From Verrucomicrobiota bacterium (GTDB taxonomy: Bacteria > Verrucomicrobiota > Verrucomicrobiia > Limisphaerales > SIBE01), in contig JACQWK010000125.1 in assembly GCA_016209525.1 (NCBI GenBank), forward strand, positions 377 to 64,376: a DNA stretch of 64,000 nucleotides, written 5' to 3'. The notes under the pieces are model-generated. The model was not told the origin of the DNA, ran no database searches, and saw nothing but the letters and a program-made list of their open reading frames with translations. Made by a program: the position numbers and the translations under genes. This document shows positions 16,514 to 40,100 of the stretch, one piece after another (the stretch's first letter is position 1; the number at the start of each line of letters is the position of its first letter).

Positions 16514-17482
16514 CTACCTCCTGTGCCAGTTTAGCCAACCCTTCGCGCGCCTCGGCCAGAATTCGAACAACTGGTCCGCGGCATCGACATAAGCCTTGAC
16601 GAGGCGGGCCCGACGGCAGGTGAGGGTTTCGCGGAAGGCACGGAGTGTCTCGGCCTCGACTTTTCTTTTGGCCGCCAGTTTGTCCAAAAATGCCATGAGC
16701 ACCTCCAAATCTTGAATGTTGCCCATCATCGCTTGGTAATCGTGCATCGACTGGAGTTGACGGCGTCCCACACCCGAGAGCACGGGGCGAAGAGATTCAA
16801 CCATGTAGCGGAATCTTTTGAACGCCACGCGGACCCGATGGATCGTCGTCGTGTCCACCGGATCGATCTGGCGTCGGAGCCGCACGACCTCCGCATGGGA
16901 GACATCCACGGCGCTCAGCACCAGCAAAAACTGGCGAGTGTTCTCCATAGGATCGCTGAAGAGCGCGGCCAACTCCTTGCGCAGGGCCGCCATGAGCTCG
17001 GCCAGTTTGTCCGCCTTGAACCGCTTGATGCTCTTGGCCAACCGTTTGATGAACCGGCGTTCCCGGCCCTTGAGCCTTTGATAGAGCGCTGTCAACTCGG
17101 GATACTCACGGAGCATTTCTCCAACTTGCAGCAACTGTACTTGTGTATCGCGCAGACTGTCGAATTCATCCAACCGTTTCTTCAGATTCCGTTCCGCCTT
17201 TTTCAGACAAGCGCCTTGGAGAAGCGCGCTAAGGAGGTCAACTTTCGACAACAACCGGCGAGTCTGGACGCGCAGGAGGTGAACTGATTCTTCGGAAAAG
17301 TCCCGCTGGCAACGCTTCAACTTCTTGCGGTAACCCCGCCAGAGTTCTTTGATCGAAGCCATCAGGTGGTCGCCCAAGGCCGGGGCGCCCCCCAGTGCCG
17401 CCTGGGAGTTTTCGCTCTGCCGATCCACGACGCTCGGTTTCAAAAAGAAAAGGCGATGGCTCGCTGTGTTGTCGTCGAACAT
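16514..17482 (-). CDS. CHAD domain-containing protein
   Basis: Helical and rich in conserved R/H. 'VHLLRVQTRRLLS' and 'IHRVRVAFKRFRYMVESL' are typical CHAD motifs. Confidence 0.7.
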   Translation of the reverse strand: MFDDNTASHRLFFLKPSVVDRQSENSQAALGGAPALGDHLMASIKELWRGYRKKLKRCQRDFSEESVHLLRVQTRRLLSKVDLLSALLQGACLKKAERNLKKRLDEFDSLRDTQVQLLQVGEMLREYPELTALYQRLKGRERRFIKRLAKSIKRFKADKLAELMAALRKELAALFSDPMENTRQFLLVLSAVDVSHAEVVRLRRQIDPVDTTTIHRVRVAFKRFRYMVESLRPVLSGVGRRQLQSMHDYQAMMGNIQDLEVLMAFLDKLAAKRKVEAETLRAFRETLTCRRARLVKAYVDAADQLFEFWPRRAKGWLNWHRR

Positions 17483-17634
17483 GCCTGCATCCCGAAGTTA
17501 AGTCGAGCCTCACGACGCGCGGCCGGAGGTTAGAGCGGCGACCCGGCGCAACCCGTCTCAAGCAACATTAAAGACCAATCGACTCCCCCGCGTCTTGATG
17601 CAGATCAAGGCGGGAGGCCTGAACCGTGTCCTAT

Positions 17635-17775
17635 GAGCGTGTTTTGAAAATGGGTGGAACGGGCTACCAGCCCGTTGCCGGCGGCAACCTGCCGCCGAAA
17701 ATGGCGGCAGGCTGGTAGCCTGCCGTAACAGGCCAGTGGCCTGTTCCACCCGAAAGGCATTTTCAAAACACGCTC
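17635..17775. repeat. 141-bp MITE-like element with about 26-bp terminal inverted repeats and nested hairpins
   Basis: Left arm 'gagcgtgttttgaaaatgggtggaac'. Right arm 'gttccaccc(gaaaggc)attttcaaaacacgctc'. Internal hairpins include 'ggcggcaacctgccgcc', 'ggcaggctggtagcctgcc' and 'acaggccagtggcctgt'. Confidence 0.7.
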
Positions 17776-17806
17776 TAAATGGCCCTAACGGAAAAATGCG
17801 ATATTT

Positions 17807-19414
17807 ATGAAACCGGTCCACATCACACTGATAATCCTCGCCGCTAGCCTCTGCCGCGGCGATCAATCCACCTCGGATCCGCCGCGCTGGGCGATGGCTG
17901 GAGTTGCTGACACAAGCGGTGCCTCCAAGGCCGTGAGCGCTTCGCGTGAGGAGGCGGTGATTCTTACCCCGCCGCCGCCGCGCGCCCCGCGGATCAACGG
18001 CGCCAAAATTTTCGGCGTTCGTCCAGGCTCGCCATTTCTTTTCACAATCCCTGCGACCGGCGACCGGCCCATGGTTTTCGCCGTGGAAAACCTCCCGGCC
18101 GGTTTGAAGATGGACGCCCAGACGGGGCAAATCAGCGGCGTCGTGAGCAGCCGTGGCGAGTACACCGTTACCTTCAAGGCCTCCAATGCGCTGGGCCGCG
18201 CCGAACGCAAATTCAAAATCGTCTGCGGCGACACGCTGGCGCTGACGCCTCACATGGGGTGGAACAGTTGGTATGTGTGGGAGAATCATGTCACGGACAA
18301 AATCATGAGGGAGGCGGCCGATGCCATGGTCGCCAGCGGCATGATCAATCACGGCTACATGTACGTGAACATCGACGATTGCTGGTCGGTCAAGCCTGGC
18401 TCCAAAGATCCCAGCCTGGGCGGTGAACTTCGCGATGCTCAAGGCAAGGTCAACTCAAACCGCCGCTTCCCGGATATGAAGGCGTTGACGGACTACATCC
18501 ACTCAAAGGGTCTCAAAGCCGGCATCTACACATCGCCCGGACCGCTGACCTGCGCCGGGCATGTCGGCGCGTACGGACATGAAATTCAGGACGCGGAGCG
18601 ATTCGCCGAATGGGGTTTCGACTTCCTTAAGTACGACTGGTGTTCCTACGGGAAAATCGCGAAGAACAAGAGCCGCGGGGAACTGGAGAAACCTTATCGG
18701 CTGATCGGCGACATCCTCAAAAAACAGCCGCGGGACATCGTTTTGAACTTGTGCCAATACGGCATGGGCAGCGTCTGGGAATGGGGACAAGAGGTGGGCG
18801 GGCATAGCTGGCGCACGGCGGGCGATCTCGGCCTCTCCTTTGAAGGAATTGCCACGGCGCTGTTCCGAGACGGCTTCGATGTTTATTCGCGGAACGAGCT
18901 CCACAAGTTCGGCGGACCTGGCGCGTGGAATGATCCCGATTATCTTTTGCTCGGTTATCTCAGCAATTGGAAAGGCGCGACCGCGCCCACGCCGCTGACC
19001 CCGAACGAACAATACACTCACGTGTCGCTTTGGTGTCTTCTGGCGGCGCCGTTGATCTTCAGCGGCGACATCACCCGGCTCGACGCGTTCACTCTGAGCC
19101 TCCTTACCAACGACGAAGTCATCGAAGTCGATCAGGACCCGCTCGGCAAACCCGGACGCCGCGCGGCGAAGGAAGACAACCTTGAAGTCTGGGCCAAGGA
19201 AATGGAAGACGGCTCGAAAGCGGTCGGTCTGTTCAATCGCGGTGAAGTCGAAGCGAGGGTCACTGTGAAATGGCCGGACTTGGGGCTACGAGGCAAACAG
19301 ACGGTCCGCGACCTCTGGCGTCAGAAAGACCTCGGTACATTTGAAGGTCAATTCCAAACCTCAGTTCCCCGCCACGGGGTCGTCCTGGTGAAGATGGCGG
19401 CGCTCGCGCACTGA
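17807..19414 (+). CDS. GH27 alpha-galactosidase-like glycoside hydrolase with an N-terminal Ig/cadherin-like domain
   Basis: Signal peptide. 'HMGWNSWYVWENHV...GYMYVNIDDCW' and 'FLKYDWC' are GH27 hallmarks. Confidence 0.85.
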   Translation: MKPVHITLIILAASLCRGDQSTSDPPRWAMAGVADTSGASKAVSASREEAVILTPPPPRAPRINGAKIFGVRPGSPFLFTIPATGDRPMVFAVENLPAGLKMDAQTGQISGVVSSRGEYTVTFKASNALGRAERKFKIVCGDTLALTPHMGWNSWYVWENHVTDKIMREAADAMVASGMINHGYMYVNIDDCWSVKPGSKDPSLGGELRDAQGKVNSNRRFPDMKALTDYIHSKGLKAGIYTSPGPLTCAGHVGAYGHEIQDAERFAEWGFDFLKYDWCSYGKIAKNKSRGELEKPYRLIGDILKKQPRDIVLNLCQYGMGSVWEWGQEVGGHSWRTAGDLGLSFEGIATALFRDGFDVYSRNELHKFGGPGAWNDPDYLLLGYLSNWKGATAPTPLTPNEQYTHVSLWCLLAAPLIFSGDITRLDAFTLSLLTNDEVIEVDQDPLGKPGRRAAKEDNLEVWAKEMEDGSKAVGLFNRGEVEARVTVKWPDLGLRGKQTVRDLWRQKDLGTFEGQFQTSVPRHGVVLVKMAALAH

Positions 19415-19857: not shown

Positions 19858-20650
19858 ATGCAAGCCCGGTTCTGGTTTCCTCTACTCTGCGCCCTGAGCG
19901 CTCGCGGAGCCGATCTGTCCACCGCAAGCAACAGTTTCACGTTCGCCCTTTCGCCGCCGGCTGCCCCGAGCCTGCTTCTCCCCGACTCTCCGTTCGGCAT
20001 CAACACCGCCTTCAATCCCAGCGCATCCGATCTCGAGGCGCGCCTCCAGGCCATGCAGCAGGCCGGCCTCAAGTGGGGCCGGCAGGATTTCACGTGGCGG
20101 CGGATCGAGAAGACTCTGTTTCAACACGCACATCCATCCCTACGGCGTCTCGGAGTTGCGCCAGGCCGATCTGCTCGTGCGCTTTTACGTGCAGGCCATC
20201 GCGTCGCGAAAGATCGACAAGATTTTTTGGTGGACGCTCAAGGACGGCGGCGGCCAGCAGTTTGACGCGGCCGAAATGGTGGGCCTGATGCGTGCCGACC
20301 TCACCCCCAAATATGCTTACCAAGCTTACGCCGTGATGACTCGCATGCTCGAAGGCAAGAAATGGGTGCGCAATGACGCCTTTGGGCCGGACGTGTTCGC
20401 CTGCGTCTTCACGGACGAGGCGAAGGGCGAGGACACGATTGTGGCGTGGGCGAACAAGCCTTACGCCTACGCCCGGATCAATAATACCGAGCGCGGCCTG
20501 ACCCAATACGACGTGTTCGGCACCAAGCGAGTGGTCACCTACAACAAAGTGCGCACGGGCGCGAATCCGTTCCCGTTCGGCGAAAGCCCCATCTATATCG
20601 TGGGACCGAAAGGATTGAAGGTGAACGTGCACCCGGATCCCGGGTGGTAG
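19858..20650 (+). pseudogene. TIM-barrel glycoside hydrolase (GH39/GH5-like) with its catalytic core deleted
   Basis: Frame 1 encodes a signal peptide plus 'SPFGINTAF...AGLKWGRQDFTWRRIEK' and then degenerates. Frame 2 resumes at 'GVSELRQADLLVRFYVQAI...' and continues to the C-terminus. Only about 250 codons of recognisable sequence remain. Confidence 0.6.
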
Positions 20651-21457
20651 GCGCAGACTTCCTGGACCCGTGGAAAAGGAGTGATCCTCGGCCCGCAGAA
20701 TGCGCCGAACCCCCAGAAAACTTTTCGGCGTTATTCAGCGTATTCTGCGGCGTCTCAGACACGTTCCAGCGTTGAGAGACTTGTCAGCGCCCTGCCGATT
20801 AAAAATCGGCGATACGGCAGATTGGAAATTCGTTTTTTGCACTTTTCTGGGCCTTTCATTCGGTTTCTTCAGTACTCACCATTGCATGGATTCTATTGAT
20901 CTAAAAGGTCTTGTGGCCCGTCTATGTTGGCATTCCAAGAATTCCTCGAAAGTGGCACAATTTGTGGCACAAGCATCCCTGCCCCCGCCGACTGACGCTG
21001 CCGCTTCAACCGTTCTTTCCGCTTTCTTCTCATTCCGCGAATTGGTCCGGAGCCATCAGTTCTTCCCGTTAGAAGATGCTTTCCGATCCGTTCGAGATTG
21101 ACGAGACCTCTCACGAATTGATTGGGCCAGGCACAGCCCACAGCCTCGATTTGTTAAACCGAAAGACCGAGGCTTCTCAGTTTGTCCCGCCGTTCTGGAC
21201 TGTCCGACTGCTCCCTTGTAAGAGCAATACCAGGCCAGGCTGCCCGGATCACATTCATGACCGACCGATAATCCTCGACCTTCGTCCCAAGTTGAAATCG
21301 GGCCAATGGTGAACGTCTTCCCCAACACGGCGGCGCCGTCTCGTCGTTTTTGCCCCAGATTCGTCTTCACAGATTGCCTAATCGATTCGCCACGTCAGGG
21401 TCGGACCGATGCGTTTCAGCAGTGATGCGCTCAAACAATCCCAATCACTGATCCTTG

Positions 21458-23698
21458 TCACCGAGCGATGCGGTACTGGGGCAATCGGCGAAGAACCCAC
21501 CTGACAAAACTTGAACGAGGTTGAAGCTCTCTGATTACCCATTTTACGATGTCGGCGTGATTCGCGTGCTCGTATTTTCGATGATGGTAGTTCATCAACT
21601 TCTTTAGTTCGTTCGGGAGATTCCTCTCCTCAAGCAAGGGTTCCGTGACTGCGTTGACGATAATGATCGTACGGTCCGTGGCGAACGCCTGATTGATTTC
21701 CTGCCGTACCCAGTCCTCCGGATCGTGAAGCCGCTGGACTGCGTTGCCGGTCAACAGCAAGAGGAAATTCGGAGCATCTTGAATCTCGTGAAGCAAACGC
21801 TCAGGAAACTGCTCCGCCCCGATTTCCTTGTCCATTGATGCAGCCTTGCCTGCCAGTGCCAACTCAGCGTGGAAGGCATTGGCGAGCGCGCCGCCACTCG
21901 TGTGATGGTAGCTGATAAAGACGACCGGCCAACCAAGTTCGCGCCGGTTGATCCAGATCGCGGTTAACGTCGTCGCGAGCACGGGGAACTCCCAGACGGC
22001 GAGCCAATTGAACCAGACACCTAGCCATCGGTGTGTAAGCAGTCCGATAGCGACTCCCCCCAAACCGAGTGCGGCGCCGATCAGGAAAGCACATCCGGAT
22101 CGAAAACAGCAAAGGCTGAGAGCAAAGACCCCACCCGAGATGATTCCCAAAACGGTTTCCGTGTTTTTTCCTGGCCGGGAGAGCCAATCACCGCAAAGAA
22201 TATTGTCAAAGGCGGTCGCATGAATCTCGACGCCGGGCATGCGTTTCCCTCCGAACCTTGTCCACGGATTGCCGAAGATATCCATCGTCGCCCCCACCAC
22301 ACCAAGCGTACTATCGCCACCGACGAAAACTACTTTTCCCTGAAGCTCATCAATGTGGTTGGTGATCTCATGGAGGGCGACCTTCCTGAACACATCCCCG
22401 GGTCTACCCCGATAGTTCAGCCAAAGAGTGCCCGCTTGACTGGCTCTCTCCACCTTATTGCCGTCGAAAAACCTTGCCGCTTTCCAAATCAGAGTTGTGC
22501 GATCGGGAAGATCAACTACCGAGTCTTGATCAAATTCGATAAGCTTCCCGAACGTGCGGATTACGAAGTCGGGATCGATGGGCCTGAATGCGATCAGCCC
22601 AACTTGGTTGGATGGGATGCTGAGCGACGGAGACGGTGGCAGTGAGACGACTCGGATTGGGGGATCGCTCGCAGTTGGCGTTTCAATGTAGCCAGCACCC
22701 ACGAAGACTTCGCCCTGCCGGATCAACTCTCCCAATTTCCGATCAGTGTCCGCGTCTTGTATCTTGCTCGCGAGGACCAAGTCCATCACCACCAATTTCG
22801 GCTTTGCTTTCTCCAACGTATCCAACAAATGGACGAAATGCTTGCGGTCCAAGGTGCCATCGGGACCACGGTTGTAGTTGGGCTGTCGAAAGGTCTCGTC
22901 ATTTACGACCACTAATGCTATCTCATCGACCTTGACCGGCTGAGAGGTGACAAAAGGAAGATCGTAGCAGAACCTGGCAAGAATACTATCGTAGTTGGCC
23001 CACACAAAGCCCCCGGCGAAAACCGACAAAATCACGGCCGGCCAGTAGGCTTTCTGCAATCGACGTTCTAGTGCCAGTTTAAGACGCCTTCGCCGGTGGC
23101 CCAATTTCACCAGCCATGCCGCCACCTGCGAGAGTATGCTCTTGTCCTTGAGCACTTCAGATATCCGAGCTTCAACCACGCCAAGCTCTCTTAGGCGACC
23201 GGCGTCAAATGCATTCAGCAGCCGTTCAGCGTTGTCTGGGTCGACTTCCCAGCTCGGCGACGAACTCGTGGCCTCTTGTTCGTACCGACTGACTTTGGAC
23301 CCCGGACGGCAAAATGCCTTTAGAAAGTCCGATATTCTATTTTCATCTTCATCGGAAAAACTGGCTCGATCGCCCGATAGCTCTAGAGTTAGTCTTGCCA
23401 AAGGTTCCGAGTAGCGATTGAGCCGTTTGACCAGCTCGGTCCGAGCATGCCGAACCTCCTCCTCCGTAATGCCCTTAGCTTGTCGTGTTATCGAGTCGTA
23501 CTGATTATGATGACGCAAACAGAGAAAAACGAGGTTGTCTTCCGAGGCATTCGAAGGATCGTCATCGATGTGGGCGATCTGGCCGTCCTTTTGAGATTCG
23601 TCTCGTTCCAAGTGCGCGCACAGACAACATCTTCGCCGACAGGAAATGAGGACTCTGGCCTCCACAGCCTTAGGAATTGGCTTCCTTGGTTTTGGCAT
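21458..23698 (-). CDS. membrane protein: N-terminal HNH-like nuclease/zinc-finger domain, TM, periplasmic CHASE2 sensor, three TMs, C-terminal TIR domain
   Basis: 746 aa. HNH-like region at aa 20-67 ('CRRRCCLCAH...GQIAHIDDDPSNASEDNLVFLCLRHHNQYD'). CHASE2-like region at aa ~255-510 ('IALVVVNDETF...KLVVMDLVLAS...GVEIHATAFDNIL'). Three hydrophobic helices at aa ~515-585. TIR-like region at aa 592-746 ('VVFISYHH...FLLLLTGNAVQRLHDPEDWVRQEINQA'). SD-like 'GAAGGAA' upstream of the ATG. Confidence 0.8.
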   Translation of the reverse strand: MPKPRKPIPKAVEARVLISCRRRCCLCAHLERDESQKDGQIAHIDDDPSNASEDNLVFLCLRHHNQYDSITRQAKGITEEEVRHARTELVKRLNRYSEPLARLTLELSGDRASFSDEDENRISDFLKAFCRPGSKVSRYEQEATSSSPSWEVDPDNAERLLNAFDAGRLRELGVVEARISEVLKDKSILSQVAAWLVKLGHRRRRLKLALERRLQKAYWPAVILSVFAGGFVWANYDSILARFCYDLPFVTSQPVKVDEIALVVVNDETFRQPNYNRGPDGTLDRKHFVHLLDTLEKAKPKLVVMDLVLASKIQDADTDRKLGELIRQGEVFVGAGYIETPTASDPPIRVVSLPPSPSLSIPSNQVGLIAFRPIDPDFVIRTFGKLIEFDQDSVVDLPDRTTLIWKAARFFDGNKVERASQAGTLWLNYRGRPGDVFRKVALHEITNHIDELQGKVVFVGGDSTLGVVGATMDIFGNPWTRFGGKRMPGVEIHATAFDNILCGDWLSRPGKNTETVLGIISGGVFALSLCCFRSGCAFLIGAALGLGGVAIGLLTHRWLGVWFNWLAVWEFPVLATTLTAIWINRRELGWPVVFISYHHTSGGALANAFHAELALAGKAASMDKEIGAEQFPERLLHEIQDAPNFLLLLTGNAVQRLHDPEDWVRQEINQAFATDRTIIIVNAVTEPLLEERNLPNELKKLMNYHHRKYEHANHADIVKWVIRELQPRSSFVRWVLRRLPQYRIAR

Positions 23699-26700: not shown

Positions 26701-27137
26701 GGCGTTTGACCCTCTTCGGCAATCCCGACTTGGCCCGAGGCAACTTCCACCGTTCCGTTCGTATTCCACAGTCTCACCGTGCCATCAAAGACCCTCACCA
26801 GCGTCCGGCGTGGTCCATTGGATTCCACCAGAACTTCATACTCCGTGTTGATCGCTCCGGCGTTAGCGTAAGGAGTTTGAACCTGTGTGCCCGGCCTTCC
26901 CGTGGCAAACAAACTGACCGCCCCCCAAAACAATTCCATGAAGCTCGGCTTCTTGCGATCGGGCTTGTAGGAGCTTTGCTCGCGCACAACCGCAACAACA
27001 CGGTTCGTAGCCACCAGAACCTCGCGCTCTCCTATCCTGGTTTCCTGCTTGACCTCTTGTGAAACCACATCCAGGGAGATTACGAAGGAAATCACACAGG
27101 CGAAACGAGGCCACCCGAGGATGAATCGCGTCTTCAT
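23727..27137 (-). CDS. outer-membrane protein: signal peptide, FecR-like domain, TPR array, TonB-dependent-receptor-like beta-barrel
   Basis: 1136 aa. FecR-like region at aa ~80-145 ('TLVRVFDGTVRLWNTNGTVEVASGQVG'). About 350 aa of TPR-like helices. C-terminal barrel motifs ('LSFTAGLQYDTLDS', 'LPKAALIWRPTDSLSVRGMFAQS', terminal 'FFVRLRLNL'). The start codon overlaps the upstream stop as ATGA at 27134-27137. Confidence 0.75.
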   Translation of the reverse strand: MKTRFILGWPRFACVISFVISLDVVSQEVKQETRIGEREVLVATNRVVAVVREQSSYKPDRKKPSFMELFWGAVSLFATGRPGTQVQTPYANAGAINTEYEVLVESNGPRRTLVRVFDGTVRLWNTNGTVEVASGQVGIAEEGQTPRILETNQVSPQFALLATNRVQWWLYYPAILDTRELQFSPDEAANFAQSLDAWRRGNLRAAGREFPTTLPQLTDAGRTYYAALRLAAGEAGDASALLNQVQADSPTVRGLRELIAVVAHTDMVTNDPGKSATAWLGRSFWLQARTGMTNRLELARDAALQAVAYSPTNGLALARLAELEFSLGRLRRAREALDKALANSPEHAAAYAMRGFVLAAENRIDEARLSFDKARDLDPMLPEGWLGSGLLWFRAGEKRAGLDDIQAAALVGGNRSLLRSYLGKAFAETYDIKHAQAQLELARGLDPNDPTPWLYSALDLYAQNRVNEAIADLERSLKLNDNRAVYRSQLLLDQDRAVRATSLARLYLRAGMPEVALREAAHAVSYDYANPSAHLFLADSFNALRDPTRFNLRYETAWFNELLLANALAPVDSGILSPGLTHQEYTRLFARDGFFLSSFGEARSDGQFRQLATQSGVFGRSAYAVDLDFQHNDGVRPNNDLERIEVYAQIKQQISRTDTALLLTKFQDYESGDNFQYRDPANPRPHFRFDERQEPIAIGIWRHEWSPGHQTLALAGRLENDQRFRDLGTTKTVLVGSPANPQDLLLDLAYRGRFETYMGELNHIAQFNSNTLVAGGRVQVGEFTTSDRLTGDPRVSSFFGDTAGTGVFHDAVIGEEFSRLSLYAYDTWQALERLSFTAGLQYDTLDSPRNFRHPPISGGSVDQSRLLPKAALIWRPTDSLSVRGMFAQSLGGVSFDESYRLEPVQLAGFSQAFRTVIPESIVGSVSGHRLDLGGLALDVKLPTRTFLGAQATITRSAVDRTLGLFEFDPSFSWAPPGQPGQTIEFLRYEEQAIQFTVNQLVGANWSFGGKYELSRAQLDRDIPSMTFTSAEEADMHTLRLQALFNAANGWFGRAMALWWWQKDSGEINGVARIAAEHDEQHAQFDLEAGWRFPRQYGELSLGVMNLLDDDYRLAPLSAVSELPRERVFFVRLRLNL

Positions 27138-30100
27138 TCGGGAGGCAGGAGAATCGCACGTAAGAACGCCTGACCGGCGAGTTCTTGCACCGTCAAGGGG
27201 ACGGTCTGCGGGCTATTGGTCAGTGTCAGCGTACGCAGCGTCCGCCACGGTTCGGCCAACTCCAGCGAGTGCCGAATCTCGATTGCGTATTTCCAATCCA
27301 GAGCGCCCAAAAGCTCCAAGCTCTGCGCGGGGTTGAAACGCAAAATGGGCGGCCAGCCGTAACTCGCTCGGTAGGCCTGATCCTGTCCTGCGACCAAGTT
27401 AATCGTCGTGGTTTTTGGTGTCTGGTAGCCAGGCACTGGTTTGAACTCCAGGCTGTAGTCCACGCCAGTGGGCAGAATCCGGCTGGCTTGCACGGCATTC
27501 GTGAATTCCATCGACGGGATTTCTTTGAGATGCCAGGCAGCGCCAGCGGTTACCGCGGCAGCAGGTTCCAGTGTCACGCTTAGCGTCTGGAAGCCAAACG
27601 TGGCGGCACCAACAATCGGTGAATTGAAGACAAATACTCCGCCGCCCGTGAAGTTAGTTCCCAAATCGGCCGATGAGGCCGCCCGGTTGATCAGATCGGC
27701 GACCCGGCTGTCAATCGCACGAACCGTGGATCGTCCGTCGTGGGAACCGAGATAAACGGCCGCGGGGAAATACGTGCGATTGGTTGCGGGGAACGGGAGC
27801 ACGAAGAGCGGGCCTCCGCTGTTGCCCGGAAAACTGAGGAAATCCGCTGTTGAATAAAGGCATCCCCCTTCAGGAACAAAACCGTAGTTGCGAGCCTCCG
27901 TCTCAAACATACGTCCGTCAGCTTCGCCCGTGAGAGGATAACCTGCGAGGAACTTCTCTCCGGAGACGCCCTCTGGTCCCAACAACCATTCGTTTATCTC
28001 CGCATCAGATAATAAGAAGCCGCTTTCACCGTCGCGTGCCACGGGCTGGTCAAAATAAATCGCGGCGATATCCCATTGTTGTGAGGCTCGTGAGGAAACG
28101 CCAGGTTTCAACCCTTGTTCCCGCTCCTTCCGGCGCTCGATCAGATACTGGTCCATCACATACCATCCGAGCCCCCTCATTGGCCGGGATTCATAGTCAC
28201 CAGCGTGCCGTTCGTGGAACCACTCGACCGATGTCACGAAGTTCGTAGTCGAATCGTCAAAAAGAACGTGTGTTGCGGTGAGCACGACCTTCTTCCGAAC
28301 GGCAATGCCGCTTCCCCAGCCGAGAGGTGTTCGAAGCTGGCCAACCAACGGCAACGGACGCTTAAGCGTGGTCCTGGTCGCGAGCGCATCCTCAATCTCG
28401 GCGTAGCTGAGTACAGGCCGTGCGGTGCGCCTCCCTGGAGGAGGTGCAGGCTCATAATCCACACGGACGATATTGTCCACACCGGAAACGAGCGTGACCA
28501 GCCGAGCAGGTGGAGTCAGCCAGTCTCTCACCGGGCGACATTCGATAATGTTGGTGGCACCCGCTGGCAGTCCGGTCCACGGGTACCCACTGGGCAGATA
28601 GCCCAGCTCGCCTCGGAGCCGCCAACCTGCGTCCAACCTGTGCACCTCTGGGGGCTCAATCATGACGATCAGGGAGCCGCTATCCCGCGCCAGCCTACTG
28701 GCGTAGCGCGCGATGCGGCCTGTCACCTCTTTATTTAGGACCGGAATAATCGCAGCAGGTGGTTCGTCAAATCCGGCAATAGGGCGAAATTGAATCGCAT
28801 AATTCCCGACGTCGAGATTGCCGAGAGTCTGGCCGCTGGAATGCCACACCAGCTCCCACGGCAACCTCCAGCCCCCGCGTTCTGCTGCCGGAGCCTCGAT
28901 AGTCACCCTCAATGCGCCGCTTGCGGTGCGTGCATTCGGCGGCACGAGCCTCATGAACGATGTCGGCATCGCCGGCACTTCGTCGTCCGTGATGGAGACC
29001 GTGGCGATGCTTGGCGCGCCCAGCATCGCGCCGTTTGAAGGAGAACTAAGTGAAATCGTCAGTTCTCTGGTGCGATCAAGCACAAAGTTATCAAGCAGCC
29101 TGATTCGAATCTCCTTAGTGTCTTCGTTTCTGGCAAAATCCAAGCGGCCCGGCTCCAGGAGATAATCACGCCCGGGAACGGCAGTTCGGTCGCTCACAGC
29201 ATAACTCACACTGGCAACCGAGTTGCCGGTTCTCAGCACCGGGATTTTGAGCACACCCGCACTCTCGTTGGTTTGAAAGGAATCCTGACTGAAGCGAACA
29301 ATAACTGGATCGTTCACCTCCAGCTTCGCATCGGTGCTCGCGGCTGATCCGACCAGATTGCTTACAACTACACCATAGGTGCCACTCTCTGGTTTCTGCA
29401 CCTTCTTCAGCACGAGTGTCGAATTTGTCGCTCCGATGATGTCAACTCGGTCCCTTCGCCACTGATAGCTCAAAGGCAGCGTGCCGGTAGCCGCTACCGA
29501 GAAGGTAACATCCGAGTCCACCAGGACAGTTTGGCTTTGAGGCTGGACGGTAATTGAAACTGGAACCGCGTAATCTCCCAAGAGGCTGATGACATACGGA
29601 GATTGCGCCCAGTCGTTCGGCGTCTGCGCACCGATGCCGTAAAGCCGACCGTCGAGCTCCACAACGGAACTAAATCCGTGGGCCATTTGGAACGGGCTCT
29701 CTATCTTTCCTTCCGATGCTGGAAACATGCGGATCACTCCATTCCAGAGAGAGAGGAAGTAAGCCCGGCCTGTTTGAGAAAAGTAGTCCGAGCGGCCCGC
29801 GACGCCTTTTGATCCCCGCGGGTCAACGAAAGGAAGAGTCCAGTCCACGCCGTTGGTTGTGCTCCAAAGGCCCAACGACACCACGACCCGATCTGGAATC
29901 ATGACGGATGAAGCGTACAGATAGTCCTGCGTTGGTACAAAACCTTGGAGGGCGAATGGCTGAAAACCTCGAACCAAGCTCCAATTGATTCCATCGACCG
30001 TTCTAAAAAGCTCGGATGATCTGGAGATTTCCTCACTAGTCGCAACGTACAAATGCCCCTTCCACTCGGTCATCGCGACAATTAGTTTGTTTGGGCCACC

Positions 30101-32151: not shown

Positions 32152-35100
32152 TTATTGCTGCCATTTGGCTCGATAGTATCCGGCTGAGTCGGTCGGCCAA
32201 GGTGGACCAATCGCGAGGACCGGGTTCACCTCCAACGTAACCGTCTGGACTTTCGTCCATGCCGCCGCTGGACCTAGCACCGGCGTAAACTCAATCTCTA
32301 CGACTTTACCGACTGGACCGGAAACGAATATGCCGTTCCCTGTCGCCGTCAGAACCGGCGTGGTGCTTTCGTAGGTTACGGTTAGACCCGCGTCTTGCCC
32401 TTCGGGCAGATTGACCGGGAAATTCGTCGGCGTTAGCCAGCCGGGCACCGATTTGAATTCCACTGTGTAATTGGTGCCTGAAACCAGGTCCGTCGTTGCT
32501 TCGGGCAAACTGGTGAACGCGCCGCCTTTCTCACTGACTCGCCAGCCCGCGCCTGCAGCGACCGCCTCTTGTGGTTCCAGCCGGACGGTCAATTTCTGAA
32601 TCCCAAATCGGGCACCCGCCACCGCCGTGTTGAACACGAGCACGCCGCCGCCGGTAAAGTTTGTGCCGAGATCAGCCGATGAGGCGGCGCGCATGATCAG
32701 TTCAGCGGCCTGGCTATCGATGCTTCTGAAGACCGACAGTTTATCTGCGGTTCCCAGATAGACTGCGGCTGGGAAGTAGGTGAGTGAATTGGTGTAGAGA
32801 ACGCACAAAGGACCGCCGCTGTTGCCAGGAAAACTGCTGATTTCGGACGTCGAGAAGAGCTGGTTGCCGTCGTTAACGAACCGGTACTGGCGAGCCTCGG
32901 TGACGAAGAGTTTCCCGTCCTCATTTCTGCCCATTGGATAACCGGCCAGAAGCTTTTCGGAGTTACCTAGAATCCACTCGTTATCCAACGCGTCCGACAG
33001 AAGGAAGCCACTCCCGCCGTTTCGAGCAATCTGTTGGTCAAAGTAAATGGCTGCAATATCCCATTGCTGCGAGGCGCGAGTAGCAACCCATGAAGGTTTT
33101 CCCTCTTCTCGCTCCAATCGCCGTTGGCGCAGGTATTTTTCAAATACGTACCAGCCTTGGGCACGAATCGGGCGCGATTCATACTCCCCGACATGCAATT
33201 CAGGCAACCAATCAACCGACTCGACGAAATTGGTCGTCTCTTCGTCAAAAAGGACGTGCGCCGCCGTCAAGACAACCTTTTTTCGCACTGCGATTCCGCT
33301 GCCGAATCCAGCCTTGGAGCGAAGCTGTCCCACAAAGACAAGCGGTCGCCGAAGCGTCTCGTTCAGCGCTTCTCCTATTTCGACAAATCTCGGCACTGTT
33401 TGGGGAATGCGAGTCCCTGGTGCTAACGGAGAGGCGGGTTCATAAAACGCGGTCACGACGTTTTCCGCGTTGGGAAGAATAGTAACAAACCGTGGGGCAG
33501 GAGTGTACCAACCGTTCGTGGAGCGGAATTCCAAGATGTGATTAGTTCCGGAGAGCAAATCCGCAAGGCGAAAGCCGCTCGCTTGAAATTCGCTGTCGCC
33601 GCGTAAACGCCATCCCACTCCCGGCAACGCCTCATCTGGACCGAGACGGACGATCAGATTCCCTGTGGTCACTGCAGACAGAGCGCTAGTGTAGCGGACA
33701 GTTCGGCTCGTCGTTAATCTATCTTGAACAGGTGCTATAATCGCATTCGGCTGAACAAAGTTGGCGACCGCACGGAATTGAATTACGTAGAGCCCAACGT
33801 CGAGATTCGAAAGCGTGTGGCCACTCGAATGCCACGATAAATCCCAAGGCAGCCGCCACGCGGCCCCCGGTAATCCATTCGGCTCGATGGACACTCGAAC
33901 TGCGCCCAAACCGGATCGCGGTAGGGGCTCCCGAAGCATTGCAAATGACGTTGGAGTTAATGGCTCTTCATCGTCGCGAATCTCGATGATCGTCCTGTTT
34001 GGGGTGCCCAAAGTTGTTCCATTTGAAGGCAAACTCAGTTCGATCGTGAGTTGTCTGGGGCCGTCGAGAACAAGGTCATCCAGAAGCTTGACCTGAATCT
34101 CCCGGCTCTCTTCCTTGGCAGCAAAGTCCATGCGACCTTGTTCGAGGAGATAATCACGGCCCGGCTCGGCGGTTCCGCCGGTCACAGAATAACTCACGCT
34201 GGCTGGCTTGGCACCGGATTTCAGCACAGGAATTCTTAGCACGTGTGCATTTTCGTCAGCTCGAAATAAATCCTGGCTGAAGCGAAAGACATCTTCTGGA
34301 TTCGGTTTGGAACTGAGTGCGATGGTGCTAGAGGCTGTTCCAGCTCCCGCAGCCGTGTCGTTCACGGCGGAGACAACGGTGACGGAACCGTTGGCGGCCG
34401 TCAGATCGAAACGTAATCCGGCTTCACCTTGGGCGACCGTGATGAAGCTGCCTGCCGCGACTGGCAATTGACCATTCCCCAAGAACAAGTTGACATTGTT
34501 CGGTGCCCTAATGCGGAAGTGTGTCACTTCAAAACCATCGCGGGGATTTCGCCGAATAGTCAATGTGGATGATGTGTCGTGACTCGCGACCGGGGCGGCG
34601 ACGGTGGGAAGGAAAGCGAAGCTTGTTAGCGGGAGGCCACCAATCCTCACAGGGTAGCCGCTGTCTTCCCTTTCTTCCCCAAGGTGGTTACCGATCGTGG
34701 TGAAACTGCCCCCTGCATAGAGATCATCCCCGACGACGAGTAGGGCGGTCACACCAGAATCGGCCGTATTCGCAGTACCGGCGGGATGCGGGGCAAACGA
34801 CGGGTCGTAAGAACCATCGGTCTTGCTGAGCCTAATCAAGCCTCCACCTTCATTCTGAAGTTCGTAGCCCCCGATGAAGACATTTGTTTCGTTCACACCT
34901 AGTGCATAGATCAAATTAAGGGTGACGTTAGGTGCGAAGAGAGGGTCCGCCTCACCCGCCCCAAACTTATTGAGCTTGGCGATCGCCCTCCGCTGTTGTC
35001 CTCCGATGACGTCGAACGAACCTGCGCAAAAGACATAGTTCTCGCCGACTACCAACGAATAGACATGGCCTGCACTATCTCGGAACAGATCCCAAGGCCG

Positions 35101-37161
35101 GGGATCCCACATTGGATCAACCGCAATAGGTGCGGAAATACTAATTCTGGCGAGGTTGGTGCGGGGAACGCCCCCAATCGACTCAAAGAAGCCACCGACG
35201 TAGAGGTTCGTTCCATCCACGGCGAGTGCGCTTGCTGCCGAGCCACCACCAGTCATCGGGGTCCACAACGGATCAGCGCTGCCATTCCCCTCTGTGTTGA
35301 TCTTTACCAATTCTCCCAAGTTCATTCCACCAACGGTGCCAAGACTTCCGGCGATGAACAGGTTAGTGCCACTCAATGCAATGCTAAGAATTTCAAATTC
35401 CGACATTCGCCTTGAGATTTTAGGGTTCCAGGCAGGGTCGGAACGATCTGATACGAGCGAATCGAATTTCGCGACCGCGTTTCTCGAATTGCCGCCGATT
35501 GTAGCAAACGCTCCGGCTACAAAGAATGCCGATTCATTGCCGACAATGGCGGTGACAACACCGTTGGGATCTGGTCGCCAGTTGGAATCGAGCCTCCCGT
35601 CAGTATTGATTCGCGCGAGATGAAGGCGTTTCAGACCTTGGGCACTAAGGAAATCACCCCCGACTACAATCTTGCCGTCGGGTTGTCTATAGATCGCGTT
35701 CACTCTCCCCGGAGACTCTACTTGGGTTGGAAATGACGAATCATACCTGCCGGTGACGGAATCCAGCTTCGCGAACCCTAGCACTTGCAGATCGTCCACC
35801 TCCGTAAACTGTCCCCCAGCAGCTATTAACGAGCCACTGGACGCGATCGTCTGAACGCCGGACAGTCTCGGCATCCACTTGTCGTCTGCAACTCCTGAGC
35901 CTGTGGTGCCGATTCGTGCGATGTTGGTCAGGCTCCGCCCGCCGATTTGAACATAGTTACCGATTACAATCAGATTTGTCCCTGAAATGGAGAGGAGCCA
36001 CACATCTCCGGTAGAACGATATTCATCCTTTGGCTGGGGATCCCAGGCGGAATCGAGTGAACCGCTGCCGGTGGTCGAGACCTTTGCAAGATTTCGACGG
36101 TTCTGCCCGGCAATGCTCCCAAAATACCCCGCGACATATAGATTGTCCGCATCCGATGCAATGGAATTGACCTCATGGTAGAATCCTCCTGGAGTGAATG
36201 GATTTGGTACCCAAAGAATGTCAGCAGCCCCGGTACCTCCAGCACTCAGCTTGGCAAGGTTCGTTCGAGCTCTTCCACCGATGAAGTCGAAATTCCCTCC
36301 AACGAAAAGGTTCGAGCCAACGAGAGCGAGCGAGTTGATTCTGGGAATTACATATCCGCTTTCACCTGGCTTGGAAAAGACGGCTGGATTTGGTTTCCAG
36401 ATAGGATCGGTAGCTCCGACACCTTGCAAGGCCACTTTGGCGAGGTTTGTGACAGAATTCTGACCTCCGATTTCCAAGAAATACCCGCCCACGTAGAGGG
36501 AGTCTTTGTCGGCGATCATGCAGTAAATCTCAGCCGATGCAGGTTGCCCTCCGATTGGATTCGGTGCCCAGTTCGGATCTGACTCTCCACGGCCCCCGAT
36601 GGAGACTTTGGCCAACCCATTACGGATTGCACCCTGAACGCTTCGAAAACTGCCTCCCACGTAAAGATTGGTGCTGACTAGGGCCATGCAATTCACCGTC
36701 CCACTGCCACCCCCGCCCGAAATGCCACTAAGGCCCGGATCCCACGTAGCGTCCATGGAACCATCCTGATTGAGGCGCGCCAGATTACGGCGCGGCACGC
36801 CACTCACGGTAAAGAAATCGCCACCAATGATCATCTGCCCATCGGGTTGAATCACGATGGCCTTCACGACCCCGCCTTTGGACAGATTCAGATTCGGTAA
36901 CGTTGATGGATGTGTTTGTGCCGAAGCGGCTCCGTTCGAGAATATGAACCACGCAACGAGGGTCAATCGAACTGCGTGCAACGCCAACGCGCGAAAGCAC
37001 GCGAGTTGTGACCGCGCAATCCGTTTACCGACCGCAAGGTAGCTTAACGTGGATCCTAGACGAATTGAGCAACTGGCCGAATCTCGAGGTAATGCTCTCA
37101 TTTCACTGTCCCCTTTGGGTTGCCGTGGCTGGACACGAGTTGTGATGCTCATTCTCACCAT
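32152..37161 (-). CDS. giant secreted protein P2: delta-60/DUF5122-type beta-propeller repeats plus the shared Calx-beta / beta-sandwich / serine-protease C-terminal module
   Basis: Repeats such as 'GGDFFTVSGVPRRNLARLNQDGSMDATWDP'. Same C-terminal module as P1 and P3 ('LTAAHVLF', 'QWDIAAIYF', 'FPGNSGGPLCV'). Candidate starts at 37161 (overlaps the P3 stop), 37152 or 37101. The hydrophobic signal region is 'LTLVAWFIFSNGAASA'. Confidence 0.85.
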   Translation of the reverse strand: MVRMSITTRVQPRQPKGDSEMRALPRDSASCSIRLGSTLSYLAVGKRIARSQLACFRALALHAVRLTLVAWFIFSNGAASAQTHPSTLPNLNLSKGGVVKAIVIQPDGQMIIGGDFFTVSGVPRRNLARLNQDGSMDATWDPGLSGISGGGGSGTVNCMALVSTNLYVGGSFRSVQGAIRNGLAKVSIGGRGESDPNWAPNPIGGQPASAEIYCMIADKDSLYVGGYFLEIGGQNSVTNLAKVALQGVGATDPIWKPNPAVFSKPGESGYVIPRINSLALVGSNLFVGGNFDFIGGRARTNLAKLSAGGTGAADILWVPNPFTPGGFYHEVNSIASDADNLYVAGYFGSIAGQNRRNLAKVSTTGSGSLDSAWDPQPKDEYRSTGDVWLLSISGTNLIVIGNYVQIGGRSLTNIARIGTTGSGVADDKWMPRLSGVQTIASSGSLIAAGGQFTEVDDLQVLGFAKLDSVTGRYDSSFPTQVESPGRVNAIYRQPDGKIVVGGDFLSAQGLKRLHLARINTDGRLDSNWRPDPNGVVTAIVGNESAFFVAGAFATIGGNSRNAVAKFDSLVSDRSDPAWNPKISRRMSEFEILSIALSGTNLFIAGSLGTVGGMNLGELVKINTEGNGSADPLWTPMTGGGSAASALAVDGTNLYVGGFFESIGGVPRTNLARISISAPIAVDPMWDPRPWDLFRDSAGHVYSLVVGENYVFCAGSFDVIGGQQRRAIAKLNKFGAGEADPLFAPNVTLNLIYALGVNETNVFIGGYELQNEGGGLIRLSKTDGSYDPSFAPHPAGTANTADSGVTALLVVGDDLYAGGSFTTIGNHLGEEREDSGYPVRIGGLPLTSFAFLPTVAAPVASHDTSSTLTIRRNPRDGFEVTHFRIRAPNNVNLFLGNGQLPVAAGSFITVAQGEAGLRFDLTAANGSVTVVSAVNDTAAGAGTASSTIALSSKPNPEDVFRFSQDLFRADENAHVLRIPVLKSGAKPASVSYSVTGGTAEPGRDYLLEQGRMDFAAKEESREIQVKLLDDLVLDGPRQLTIELSLPSNGTTLGTPNRTIIEIRDDEEPLTPTSFAMLREPLPRSGLGAVRVSIEPNGLPGAAWRLPWDLSWHSSGHTLSNLDVGLYVIQFRAVANFVQPNAIIAPVQDRLTTSRTVRYTSALSAVTTGNLIVRLGPDEALPGVGWRLRGDSEFQASGFRLADLLSGTNHILEFRSTNGWYTPAPRFVTILPNAENVVTAFYEPASPLAPGTRIPQTVPRFVEIGEALNETLRRPLVFVGQLRSKAGFGSGIAVRKKVVLTAAHVLFDEETTNFVESVDWLPELHVGEYESRPIRAQGWYVFEKYLRQRRLEREEGKPSWVATRASQQWDIAAIYFDQQIARNGGSGFLLSDALDNEWILGNSEKLLAGYPMGRNEDGKLFVTEARQYRFVNDGNQLFSTSEISSFPGNSGGPLCVLYTNSLTYFPAAVYLGTADKLSVFRSIDSQAAELIMRAASSADLGTNFTGGGVLVFNTAVAGARFGIQKLTVRLEPQEAVAAGAGWRVSEKGGAFTSLPEATTDLVSGTNYTVEFKSVPGWLTPTNFPVNLPEGQDAGLTVTYESTTPVLTATGNGIFVSGPVGKVVEIEFTPVLGPAAAWTKVQTVTLEVNPVLAIGPPWPTDSAGYYRAKWQQ

Positions 37162-40100
37162 TTGGCTCGGTAGTATCCGGCTGGGTTGGGCGTCCAAGGC
37201 GGCCCGATGACGAAAACAGGGTTTGCTTCCAGCGTAACCGTCCGGACTTTCGTCCATGACGCCAGCGCACCCAGAGCTGGGGTAAACTCAATGTCCACCA
37301 CTATACCGACCGCACCGGAAACAAAAAGGCCGGATGAAGAAGCAATCCATCGGACGGGCAGTGCTGACGGGTCGCGTTCGTACGTCACCGTCAGTTCGGC
37401 ATCCTGGCCCTCAGGCAAATTTACGCTGAAATTCGTGGGAATTAGCCATCCGGGGACCGATTTGAATTCCACGGTGTAATTGACGCCGGATACCAGGTCT
37501 GTTGTCGCCTCGGGCATACCGGTGAATGCGCCGCCTTTCTCACTGACTCGCCACCCAGCGCCCGCGGCGACTGCCTCTCGAGGTTGCAGGCGGATGGTCA
37601 ATTTCTGAACCCCAAACCGCACACCCGGCACCGGCGGGTTGAGCACAAGCACACCGCCACCGGTGAAGTTCGTGCCGAGTTCCGCTGAAGAAGCGGCACG
37701 ATTGATCAGTTGCGCCACCTCGCTGTCGATGGCGCGAACGACGGATCTGTCATCCAAGTTCCCAAGATAGACGGCCGCTGGGTAAAATGTGGGATCACCC
37801 ACTGGCCCCGCGAGCACGCAGAGCGGTCCGCCGCTGTTGCCCGGATAGCTGACAAATTGAGAAGATGAAAACAAGCGGCCACTCGCGCGGGCAAACAGGT
37901 ACTTACGCGACTCGATTGCATGAAGCCGGTTGTCCGCTTGTCCAGTGAGCGGATAGCCTCCGAGGAAACTGACCTTCGCGGTGGCCAGCCATTCGTTGTC
38001 GGTCGTGTCCGAGAGCAGGAAACCGCTTTCGCCGTGCAGAGCGATATCCTGGCCGAAGTAAATTGCGGCGACGTCCCATTGTTGCGAAGCTGGAGTGGGC
38101 CCGCTCGGAGGAATCCGTTCGCGTTCCGACCGGCGCTGCTTGAGGTACTCCTCAAACACAGCCCATCCTATCGCGCGAATAGGACGTGGATCGTAGTCGC
38201 CTGCGTGGAGTTCGTGGTGCCAAGTGATTTCGGAAACGAGATTCGTCGTGCTTTCATCGAAGAGCACATGGGCAGCCGTAAGAACGACTCGCTTCCGCAC
38301 GGCGATGCCGCTGCCATAACCGGCGGCAGACCTTAGCTGTCCCATCAGTGACAGCGGACGGCGCAACGGCTCACTCACACCATCCTCGATGGCCTGGTAG
38401 GTGCGGAGAGGGACTGGCTGGTACACTTCAGGGGCGACCGGCTGCGCGGGGGAATAGGTGGCGGTGACCACGTTGTCTAGATTCGCCAGCACGGTAACGA
38501 GCCGTGCGGGTGGAGTGGTCCAGTCTCTCACGGCCTGGAACTCCAAAATGTAATTCGTGCCCGGTGGAAGATTCCCTAGCCGGTAGGCGTTCGTGAAAAA
38601 GCTTCTTTCGCCGCGAAGCCGCCAACCTGGGCCGGGCACGGGCGCGTGCAGGACTTCCGGTGGGCCGATGCGAACCACCAAGCTACCCGATGGCCGCGCC
38701 GCGTCGCGCCGGTAAAGGAATGTGCGGACCGTGGGATCACGCTGGTTGAGCACCGGAATTTCCTCGCTGATCTCCGGCTCACGATAGTCTGCGATGGGCC
38801 GGAATTCGAGCGGGTAATTGCCTACATCGAGGTTGCCAAGGATTTCGCCGCTTTCGTGCCAAACCAGTTCCCAAGGCAACCGCCACGCGGCATTGGTGGC
38901 GACTGTGGGCTCAAGATAAACCTGTAATCGGCCAGTTGCCTTCCGGTCCTCGGGGAGAATCAACTGGGCAAACAATGTCGGCGTCACAGGCTTTTCGTCG
39001 TCGATGATGAAAATGGTGGCGACATACGGCATGCCCAGCGTGGCGCCATTCGAAGGTGAGGTAAGCGTGATGGTCAGTTGCTTTGTCCCGTCGAGGATGA
39101 AGTCATCAAGGAGCGTGAGCAGAATATCCCGGCTCTCTTCATTGGCGCCGAAGTTCAGCCGCCCCGGTTCGAGGCGATAGTCGCGGCCAGGTTCAGCGGT
39201 CCCGATGGTCACCGAGTAACTGACCGCGGCCACCGCAGCACCGACCTTGTGCACGGGGATTCTGAGCAAGCTTGCGTCTTCAGTTGTTTCCAGCACGTCC
39301 TGACTGAAGCGAAAAACAACATTCACCTCCAAGCTCGCGTCGGCGCTTGTGACTTGCCCTGCGGAATTGCTAACAACGACGCTGTAATTGCCGGCGTCCG
39401 TTTTCTGTACGCTCGGCAATATGAGTGTCGCGCTCCTCGCGTCTGGAATATTGACCCCGTCCTTGCGCCACTGGTAGCTCAATGGCAGCGCGCTCGTAGC
39501 CGTGACAGTGAGCGTGACATTGGTTCCCGCAGGAACCATCTTGCCTTGCGGCTGGGCCGTGATCGTCGGTGGCCCGAAAACTGTAATCGAGATCGGAGCT
39601 GATGTTCTGGTCACGCCAGAATCATCCGTTGCCGCCACCGTCAAAGTGTGAGAACCAGCCGGCGCATTAGTCCAGGCATTGGTGTAAGTGCCGCTCACAC
39701 TTGCGTTGGTCGCGATGCTAATCAGATTGGACGTGGAATTGGTCGCAGCGAAGAATTCGACTCGCGTAACTCTCCCGTCGGAATCTGAGGCGGACGCGGC
39801 GATGGGAATCGCTTGTCCGACGAAGAAGGTCTCGCCATTCGTGGGTGCGACAATGCGGACGATCGGGGCCAAGTTGGTCGGCCACGCTGGCACCGCGGGT
39901 CCAATCAGCCGCCAGGTTCCCTCCACCGTCAACGGTTTCGACCCCGCCCGGATAACCAGATTCGTTCCCTCCAGAAATCGAAACTCCACTGATTGGTCCG
40001 AGCGCTGCACCACCAAGTCCATCTTCTTATCTCCGTCCATGTCCAACGGTCGAACCACCTGCCAATTCCCATCCGCCGCCTCCACGGGCTTCAACCAGAT

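Follow-up and report, generated by a model that had tools for sequence, protein, structure and literature searches.

A predicted CHASE2 receptor with a SARM1-type TIR output and an N-terminal HNH-TRADD-N module in a protease-barrel-receptor cassette of a Verrucomicrobiota bacterium

A 64,000-nucleotide stretch of DNA from a Verrucomicrobiota bacterium (GenBank assembly GCA_016209525.1, contig JACQWK010000125.1, positions 377 to 64,376; hereafter the window) carries a gene whose product is best explained as an inner-membrane receptor, with a predicted periplasmic CHASE2 sensor lying between a putative cytoplasmic HNH nuclease plus TRADD-N adaptor and a SARM1-type TIR nicotinamide adenine dinucleotide (NAD+) glycohydrolase. 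The gene ends an operon that also encodes three giant secreted proteins with trypsin-like ends and an envelope protein combining FecR, TPR and beta-barrel domains (Table 1). We favor the view, to which we give a probability of roughly 45%, that these genes specify a trans-envelope sensor in which the giant proteases would feed an outer-membrane FecR-TPR-barrel partner, and this partner would act through CHASE2 on a TIR NADase and an HNH nuclease, with growth arrest or death as the outcome. Sequence, profile, fold and synteny comparisons directly support the domain architecture and the cassette, and from these we infer the mechanism.

The first-pass annotation, made from the letters alone, had placed a TIR domain at aa 592-746 with a Glu at the position used by bacterial TIR NADases, and both proposals held. 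Searched by phmmer against all PDB sequences, the domain gave significant matches (E <=4e-11) only to SARM1 and Caenorhabditis elegans TIR-1, and in the best of these (SARM1 TIR, E=1e-12 over aa 590-730) DWVRQE667 lies opposite DWVHKE642. The putative catalytic residue, E667 (codon 21698-21700, checked), is the counterpart of SARM1 E642 and is kept in 33 of 34 aligned CHASE2-TIR family members. F594, S596, Y597 and A671 are each kept in 32-33 of the 34, and W663, D623 and F631 are likewise retained. The domain has a predicted local distance difference test score (pLDDT) >90 in the full-length AlphaFold2 model, for which Foldseek ranks SARM1 TIR crystal structures first (TM-score 0.84-0.87, root-mean-square deviation ~2.5 A, 29% identity). 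Pfam TIR_2 (PF13676) is listed for the public version of the protein in database pre-computation; hmmscan of this one protein returned no TIR_2 match at E<=1. Two features, the catalytic motif DWV..E and a FISY strand, are common to the window's TIR and the animal NAD+ hydrolases. Unlike SARM1, the protein has no ARM or SAM domains, a Glu stands opposite the BB-loop Gly (SARM1 G601), and control would come from a transmembrane CHASE2 receptor as opposed to the NMN/NAD+ binding that regulates SARM1.

The region upstream of TIR had been proposed as CHASE2 following one transmembrane (TM) helix, and PF05226 matches it with E=3.3e-28 (99.4 bits versus a curated cut-off of 26.3). Hydrophobic segments lie at aa ~218-236, 515-531, 535-553 and 560-583, AlphaFold2 places helices at 511-529, 534-559 and 565-585 for TM2-4 (pLDDT >90), and nine Lys/Arg are found in the 20 residues preceding TM1 versus two after it. 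Taken together, hydropathy, the positive-inside rule and the modeled helices predict one plus three TM helices bracketing an extracytoplasmic CHASE2 domain with both termini cytoplasmic, which agrees with the first proposal and is the location required by both a nuclease and an NADase. The outputs on CHASE2 homologues found here are cyclase, His-kinase, Ser/Thr kinase, GGDEF/EAL and HD-GYP, with adenylate cyclases as the closest relatives. None of these classical output enzymes occurs in the window's protein, where TIR takes their place, and we infer that the sensor gates both of its effectors.

The N-terminal effector candidate depends on where the protein begins. A single polypeptide at 21458-23698 had been claimed, and an open reading frame (ORF) is indeed present there, containing every peptide that the first-pass annotation quoted. 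A Shine-Dalgarno-like AAGGA lies ~9 nt 5' of its ATG, and in alignment M1 matches up with M1 of an HNH-family homologue (P0002). The public gene call (P0001, 573 aa) begins at an internal GTG, V174 (23177-23179), and excludes the HNH part, which is why its precomputed annotation shows only CHASE2 and TIR_2. According to the AlphaFold2 model, a start at GTG174 would remove the last strand of the TRADD-N fold. Other database entries with CHASE2 and TIR could be likewise shortened at the N-terminus; this was not so in the five loci checked.

The Cys-rich HNH motif noted earlier at aa 20-67 is a real pattern at aa 24-64, where the full CxxC...H...N...CxxH/C-H signature supplies a complete set of predicted zinc ligands (C24, C27, C60 and H63) and predicted catalytic residues (H43, codon 23570-23572, checked; N55 and H64). 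Across 32 homologues (alignment A1), C24, C25, C27, H43, C60, H64 and D68 are invariant, N55 is nearly so, and position 63 is His or Cys. Pfam HNH_3 falls below its cut-off of 24.8 bits on this protein (13.7-15.7 bits, E 0.012-0.049). Of the 32 homologues, 17 match HNH_3 (best 4e-5), 16 the IscB HNH model (7e-7) and 10 YajD, and several are named 'HNH endonuclease' by NCBI. AlphaFold2 modeled aa 1-215 with pLDDT 86, and >90 for the HNH domain itself; the best PDB fold match of this model is the HNH domain of Cap5 (8fm1_F, prob 1.0, E=3e-3, 24% identity over 91 columns). Cap5 is a defense effector nuclease of the cyclic-oligonucleotide-based anti-phage signaling system (CBASS) activated by oligomerization. 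The likeness is confined to the ~90-aa HNH core, and unlike Cap5 the window's protein has no SAVED sensor domain.

Between HNH and TM1 lies a domain overlooked in the first-pass annotation, a diverged TRADD-N-like segment modeled by AlphaFold2 (aa ~96-185) as a beta-alpha-beta-beta-alpha-beta, ferredoxin-like fold with pLDDT ~85-95. In phmmer searches the segment alone matches P0089, P0116, P0095 and P0104. Pfam TRADD-like_N (PF20694) is matched by 19 of 35 homologous segments (best E=3e-8), and its match in P0104 (aa 129-184) falls inside the aligned region. Profile searches of PDB with the segment alignment (A7) and with the HNH-TRADD-N alignment (A1) matched nothing meaningful.

As a unit, HNH-TRADD-N is common in small proteins of ~220-400 aa and is also fused to TIR_2 (P0089), to NACHT/STAND and TPR (P0144, P0146), and to PAS, sigma-70 region 4 and metallophosphoesterase (P0002); within alignment A1, a model for anti-phage phosphoesterases picks out one sequence, presumably P0002. 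In bacterial TRADD-N proteins, a variable N-terminal effector (TIR, HNH, restriction endonuclease, calcineurin-like phosphoesterase or another) precedes TRADD-N, which is followed by a C-terminal region for sensing (Kaur, Iyer, Burroughs and Aravind 2021, eLife; PMC8195603). Judged by its sequence, the module fits this published class of conflict proteins: a predicted HNH, one of the effectors listed there, occupies the N-terminal enzymatic position, the order of effector, putative TRADD-N and C-terminal region is the same, and STAND NTPase with TPR, TIR, PAS and phosphoesterase recur as partners in relatives of the module. Unlike the listed proteins, the window's continues into a membrane-spanning CHASE2 receptor and a second effector, TIR, a combination absent from PMC8195603, where CHASE2 appears only on EACC2-caspase proteins.

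Two members of the HNH-TRADD-N family were encountered in telling places. A 221-aa 'hypothetical protein' of Agrobacterium fabrum C58 (ATU_RS24035; plasmid At, pAtC58, NC_003064.2 17669-18334, L093), 47% identical to the window's HNH domain, is encoded directly after qatC and qatD of the Qat anti-phage system and a DUF2971 gene, with an integrase and VapBC nearby, and is in a defense island of a model organism. The gene for a 277-aa protein (P0026; L006 8001-8834) sits on the opposite strand within a phage or prophage structural module, between the capsid and tape-measure genes. The effector character that we assign to HNH-TRADD-N follows from its fusions to TIR_2, NACHT/STAND with TPR and metallophosphoesterase, from the pAtC58 defense neighborhood and from the effector list in PMC8195603.

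When 1.84 billion cluster representatives were scanned exhaustively with HMMER, 4029 matched the receptor; the best 150, which were inspected, include ~30 proteins with lengths of 514-570 aa whose alignment to it runs from aa ~210 to ~720. CHASE2 is matched by all members of the 34-sequence family set and TIR_2 by 31. The CHASE2-TIR core occurs in at least 31 clusters at the 50% identity level, each of 1-3 sequences and all from metagenomes or metagenome-assembled genomes, and its members are unnamed or called 'CHASE2 domain-containing sensor protein'. A profile search with alignment A2 returned only CHASE2 cyclases and kinases already found here and gave no CHASE2-TIR count. The expectation that the architecture would be neither common nor already annotated was borne out, with a rare distribution and generic automatic names. 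CHASE2-TIR is undescribed in the literature searched, but it is not unique, at least 31 clusters sharing it. Full-text searches found no paper linking CHASE2 to a TIR output, the one text that names both leaving them unconnected, and periplasmic TIRs or TIRs linked to FecR go unmentioned in a recent systematic survey of TIR signaling in bacteria.

Six loci with CHASE2-TIR genes were inspected (the window, L001-4, L007, L088, L089 and L090/91), and in 6/6 a full-length FecR-TPR-barrel orthologue, 40-56% identical to the window's, adjoins the CHASE2-TIR gene. Upstream in L001 and L090 lies the gene for a giant whose Calx-beta end resembles that of the window's giant protein 1 (30-34% identity), and in L090 the match extends through the S1-peptidase region; counting the window, at least three loci encode giants of this type. 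The five other loci have no room for HNH-TRADD-N, the CHASE2-TIR start lying 1-91 nt behind the end of the upstream gene or the upstream gene being divergent, and this extension was found in none of the CHASE2-TIR relatives examined. Taken singly, the domains, the HNH-TRADD-N module and the partnership of CHASE2 with FecR are of known kinds; as far as our searches show, TIR as the CHASE2 output inside a conserved protease-barrel-receptor cassette is undescribed, as is the double-effector fusion.

Table 1. Positions in the window of the receptor gene, its domains and the other genes of its operon
Feature	Position	Strand	Basis or remark
Whole receptor gene, HNH - TRADD-N - TM1 - CHASE2 - TM2-4 - TIR	21458..23698	minus	746 aa; ATG to end unbroken
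Predicted HNH nuclease domain, aa 1-95	23414..23698	minus	32-sequence alignment A1; HNH_3, IscB-HNH and YajD matches in homologues; AlphaFold2
Diverged TRADD-N-like adaptor domain, aa 96-185	23144..23413	minus	phmmer; homologue Pfam matches; AlphaFold2 fold
Basic juxtamembrane helix and TM1, aa 186-236	22991..23143	minus	Hydropathy; 9 K/R before TM1; AlphaFold2 helix 188-213
Periplasmic CHASE2 sensor domain (predicted location), aa 233-513	22160..23002	minus	PF05226
Three transmembrane helices, aa ~511-585	21944..22168	minus	Hydropathy; AlphaFold2 helices
SARM1-type TIR domain, aa 590-730	21509..21931	minus	phmmer vs PDB; Foldseek; family alignment
Partner: signal peptide, FecR, TPR repeats, TonB-receptor-like beta-barrel, 1136 aa	23727..27137	minus	Pfam FecR, TPR, TonB_dep_Rec_b-barrel
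Giant protein 3: NHL propeller, Ig, Calx-beta, C-terminal S1-like peptidase region, 1656 aa	27134..32104	minus	Pfam
Giant protein 2: DUF5122 propeller, Calx-beta, Trypsin_2, ~1666 aa	32152..37152	minus	Pfam; paralogy; start candidates
Giant protein 1: FG-GAP propeller, Ig, Big_7, Calx-beta, Trypsin_2, 1938 aa	37155..42971	minus	Pfam; paralogy

In the window, the receptor gene is the last of five co-directional genes with spacings of -4 to 47 nt. A 28-nt gap separates it from the gene for the FecR-TPR-barrel partner, in which no plug domain was detected by Pfam, and this gene is in turn overlapped by that of giant protein 3 by 4 nt (ATGA). For giant protein 2 we took the ATG at 37152 as the start; the listed ORF (32152..37257) has 1701 aa. 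The three giants (27134-42971) are paralogues that have Ig and Calx-beta domains in common, together with a C-terminal region of ~720-810 aa that is 50-60% identical and contains Calx-beta and a trypsin-like S1 domain with the TAAHV / D / GNSGGP motifs intact; from their sequences, the S1 peptidase ends are apparently active. Between giant protein 3 and the other two, identity is 50% over the C-terminal ~750 aa. The layout of the giants is itself cassette-like, a constant end being joined to a variable propeller head (FG-GAP, DUF5122 or NHL). GC skew is strongly negative at 40-42 kb, within the gene for giant protein 1. No mobile-element genes were seen adjoining the cassette, Rfam and tRNA scans of the window returned nothing, and a promoter and terminator scan gave nothing above chance.

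An outer-membrane or FecR partner for CHASE2 has precedents (PMC13001267, PMC9239204, PMC5192318). CHASE2 cyclases of Sinorhizobium meliloti respond to a plant protein by way of NsrA, a barrel protein of the outer membrane, the signal being thought to be of protein nature (PMC13001267), and a Burkholderia CHASE2 kinase operon encodes a LysM-FecR protein (PMC5192318). The window's system shares with the CHASE2 cyclase systems the sensor domain, the predicted 1+3 TM topology and a receptor gene directly after that of a FecR-domain envelope partner. It differs in its output of TIR with an N-terminal HNH-TRADD-N in place of a nucleotide cyclase or kinase, in joining FecR, TPR and barrel in one 1136-aa protein and in adding the giant S1-peptidase proteins. 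The comparison of the window's partner with NsrA draws on the partner's FecR, TPR and barrel architecture and its synteny with a CHASE2 gene, and a plasmid search for an NsrA homologue gave weak TPR-level matches and one collinear Ensifer ORF. On an unannotated 1.79-Mb plasmid of Ensifer sp. PDNC004 (L092 4629-10303), a FecR-TPR protein of 1222 aa, 22% identical to the window's partner and collinear with it, is followed directly by a 668-aa ORF with CHASE2 motifs; the two may be a pair of the nsrA-cyaK type.

In the trans-envelope sensor that we favor, a surface cue, probably a protein or proteolytic product, would be captured or generated by the giant proteases. The FecR-TPR-barrel partner would relay this cue to CHASE2, by analogy with Sinorhizobium NsrA and its CHASE2-cyclase. 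Ligand-driven rearrangement or clustering of the receptor would then allow the TIR domains to assemble into an active NADase, and the HNH nuclease may be released or activated through TRADD-N-mediated association. Loss of NAD+ together with DNA damage would lead to arrest or suicide of the sensing cell, comparable with abortive and apoptosis-like conflict systems.

Several observations weigh against this scheme. The HNH-TRADD-N-CHASE2-TIR fusion was found in this single contig only, with the closest relative (P0083, 44% identity) and the five other inspected loci having no HNH-TRADD-N, and the database gene call at V174 leaves out the HNH region. Third-position G+C content (GC3) is 0.52-0.56 in the N-terminal part versus 0.63-0.66 in the remaining gene, which suggests a recent graft. 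The window's own TRADD-N segment has no direct Pfam match, is diverged and has lost the conserved GS motif. SARM1 R569/R570, for which the family consensus after the conserved Tyr is also RR, correspond to His-His here, and the first half of CHASE2 is poorly modeled by AlphaFold2. SLATT, RyR or SLOG genes near CHASE2-TIR in several other loci favor a signaling TIR, and no recognizable defense genes were seen beside the cluster in the window, a PADLOC scan having covered three cluster proteins.

The main alternative, rather unlikely in our judgment, is a second-messenger receptor whose TIR would supply separate receptors or effectors with ADP-ribose (ADPR) or a nucleotide of the cyclic-ADPR type, as the NAD-based equivalent of cyclase and GGDEF output in other CHASE2 receptors. 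Such a TIR would serve regulation, or killing by way of an effector, as opposed to depleting NAD+ directly. Candidate nucleotide-responsive genes indeed lie near the CHASE2-TIR gene in three loci: RyR and DUF4231, the latter a family that we take to belong to the SLATT clan, immediately downstream in L090 (9390-10858); a SLATT_1 membrane protein and a second TIR_2-TPR protein in L001 (11619-19231); and a RelA_SpoT-TPR-LSDAT(SLOG)-RyR protein with a TrkA_N-RyR protein in L007 (7862-13461). These RyR, SLATT and SLOG neighbors could be downstream receptors or effectors of the TIR product, and the closest CHASE2 relatives, as adenylate cyclases, are signal generators. Systems in which a TIR makes cyclic ADPR for a SLATT effector have been reported in a recent preprint (10.64898/2025.12.03.692087) and provide a precedent. 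The association is nonetheless anecdotal at three loci, and the HNH effector carried by the TIR polypeptide itself points to a killer complete in one protein. Moreover, Pfam and tblastx/tblastn comparison with the other loci found no SLOG, Macro, SLATT, RyR or other product-binding effector in the ORFs flanking the window's cluster. Neither SLATT_1, DUF4231, RyR nor LSDAT(SLOG)-RelA_SpoT occurs in the window.

For the same reason the system is not readily placed in Thoeris, which it resembles in using TIR as the responding enzyme and in the SLATT-type genes near some CHASE2-TIR relatives. Unlike Thoeris, it has no separate ThsA-like effector gene in the window, and the ThsB and ThcB4 models match only at E 0.003-0.05; a Thoeris assignment was rejected on these grounds. 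We also weighed two small minus-strand ORFs downstream of the receptor gene (21056-21370 and 20090-20632) as possible RyR- or SLATT-like partners and discarded them, since they have no Pfam match, low-complexity translations and no similarity to neighbors in other CHASE2-TIR loci. Among the genes near CHASE2-TIR relatives in the L090, L007 and L001 stretches named above there is, in addition, a cyclase with MAP3K_TRAF_bd/TPR-S domains. Two distant cassettes are each flanked by a ~360-aa protein (L007 5995-7074 and L001 4949-6055; 47% identity) that has a helical body behind a single N-terminal TM helix and matches no Pfam family; no counterpart of it was found in the window.

A second alternative, which we regard as clearly improbable, holds that only CHASE2-TIR (~550-573 aa) is functional and that HNH-TRADD-N is a functionless, accidental and recent in-frame graft of a truncated mobile defense gene, or even an assembly chimera. 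The uniqueness of the extension, its omission from the database call, its lower GC3 and its degenerate TRADD-N all point this way. Genes of the HNH family are mobile, as shown by the copy among phage structural genes and the copy in the defense island of a plasmid. No orthologue of the fused gene that would allow a purifying-selection test was found in a genome-collection query (two sequences) or in the metagenome scan (an HNH fragment only). Against a graft stand the frame, open from an ATG that is preceded by AAGGA and matches the homologue's M1, the intact zinc and catalytic residues of an HNH domain modeled at pLDDT >90, and the TRADD-N strand that a GTG174 start would cut. Fusions of HNH-TRADD-N with TIR recur independently (P0089), and misassembly is unlikely to give a clean in-frame junction just before the native basic juxtamembrane helix. 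Finally, some TIR domains serve as adaptors, and the His pair at R569/R570 would suit a non-enzymatic scaffold that recruits partners by protein-protein signaling, as in animal TLR/MyD88, but retention of the catalytic Glu in 33/34 family members and of W663, D623 and F631, and the fact that the only solved structures matched by sequence are the NADases SARM1 and TIR-1, make this role very improbable.

Beyond the trans-envelope sensor itself, we tentatively propose, as a single conjecture that is rather unlikely to hold in all its parts, a bacterial immune or programmed-death pathway across the envelope with the logic of Toll-like receptors (TLRs). Giant surface proteases with interchangeable propellers would detect foreign proteins, for example of phage, predators or competitors; the cue would pass via the FecR-TPR-barrel protein to CHASE2; TIR would make an NAD-derived signal or deplete NAD+; and HNH-TRADD-N would add DNA cleavage in this lineage. 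The parallel with animal TLRs is one of analogy, in that a sensor outside the cytoplasm is joined across the membrane to a TIR inside it; unlike in TLRs the ectodomain is CHASE2 and not leucine-rich repeats, and the likeness is in logic, with no sign of common descent. Bacterial TIR enzymes in the literature retrieved are cytoplasmic and respond to intracellular events. If the conjecture is true, this would be the first bacterial TIR enzyme under direct control of an extracytoplasmic sensor. With TIR coupled to a periplasmic CHASE2 sensor and an outer-membrane partner, NAD+-based killing or signaling could be set off from outside the cell, a conceptual parallel to animal TLRs and to SARM1 regulation. 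Such coupling would also give a new output class to CHASE2, whose ligands are largely unknown. The three-part cassette of protease, barrel and receptor is genetically tractable and could offer a route to what CHASE2 senses. Through the HNH-TRADD-N fusion, these receptors are tied to conflict systems of the apoptosis-like sort that have been proposed for bacteria of complex lifestyle.

The wider window (13009-16095, 16514-19414 and 46515-62156) encodes ribosomal protein S1, tyrosyl-tRNA synthetase and a CHAD-domain protein, and is rich in glycoside hydrolases and lyases (GH92, alpha-galactosidase, GH5 cellulase and oligogalacturonate lyase), a gene context typical of polysaccharide-degrading Verrucomicrobiota. 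The window's S1 shows 94% identity to that of Verrucomicrobiota metagenome-assembled genomes of the Limisphaerales / Pedosphaera type. In the 2-kb stretch downstream of the TIR gene, two overlapping plus-strand ORFs in different frames (19858-20650) resemble both ends of a secreted glycoside hydrolase, and the remainder of this stretch holds no convincing gene. The first of the two ORFs has a signal peptide and '...FGINTAF...DFTWRRIE' and the second '...IFWWTLKDGG...YAYQAY...'; the pair is probably a frameshifted or truncated pseudogene.

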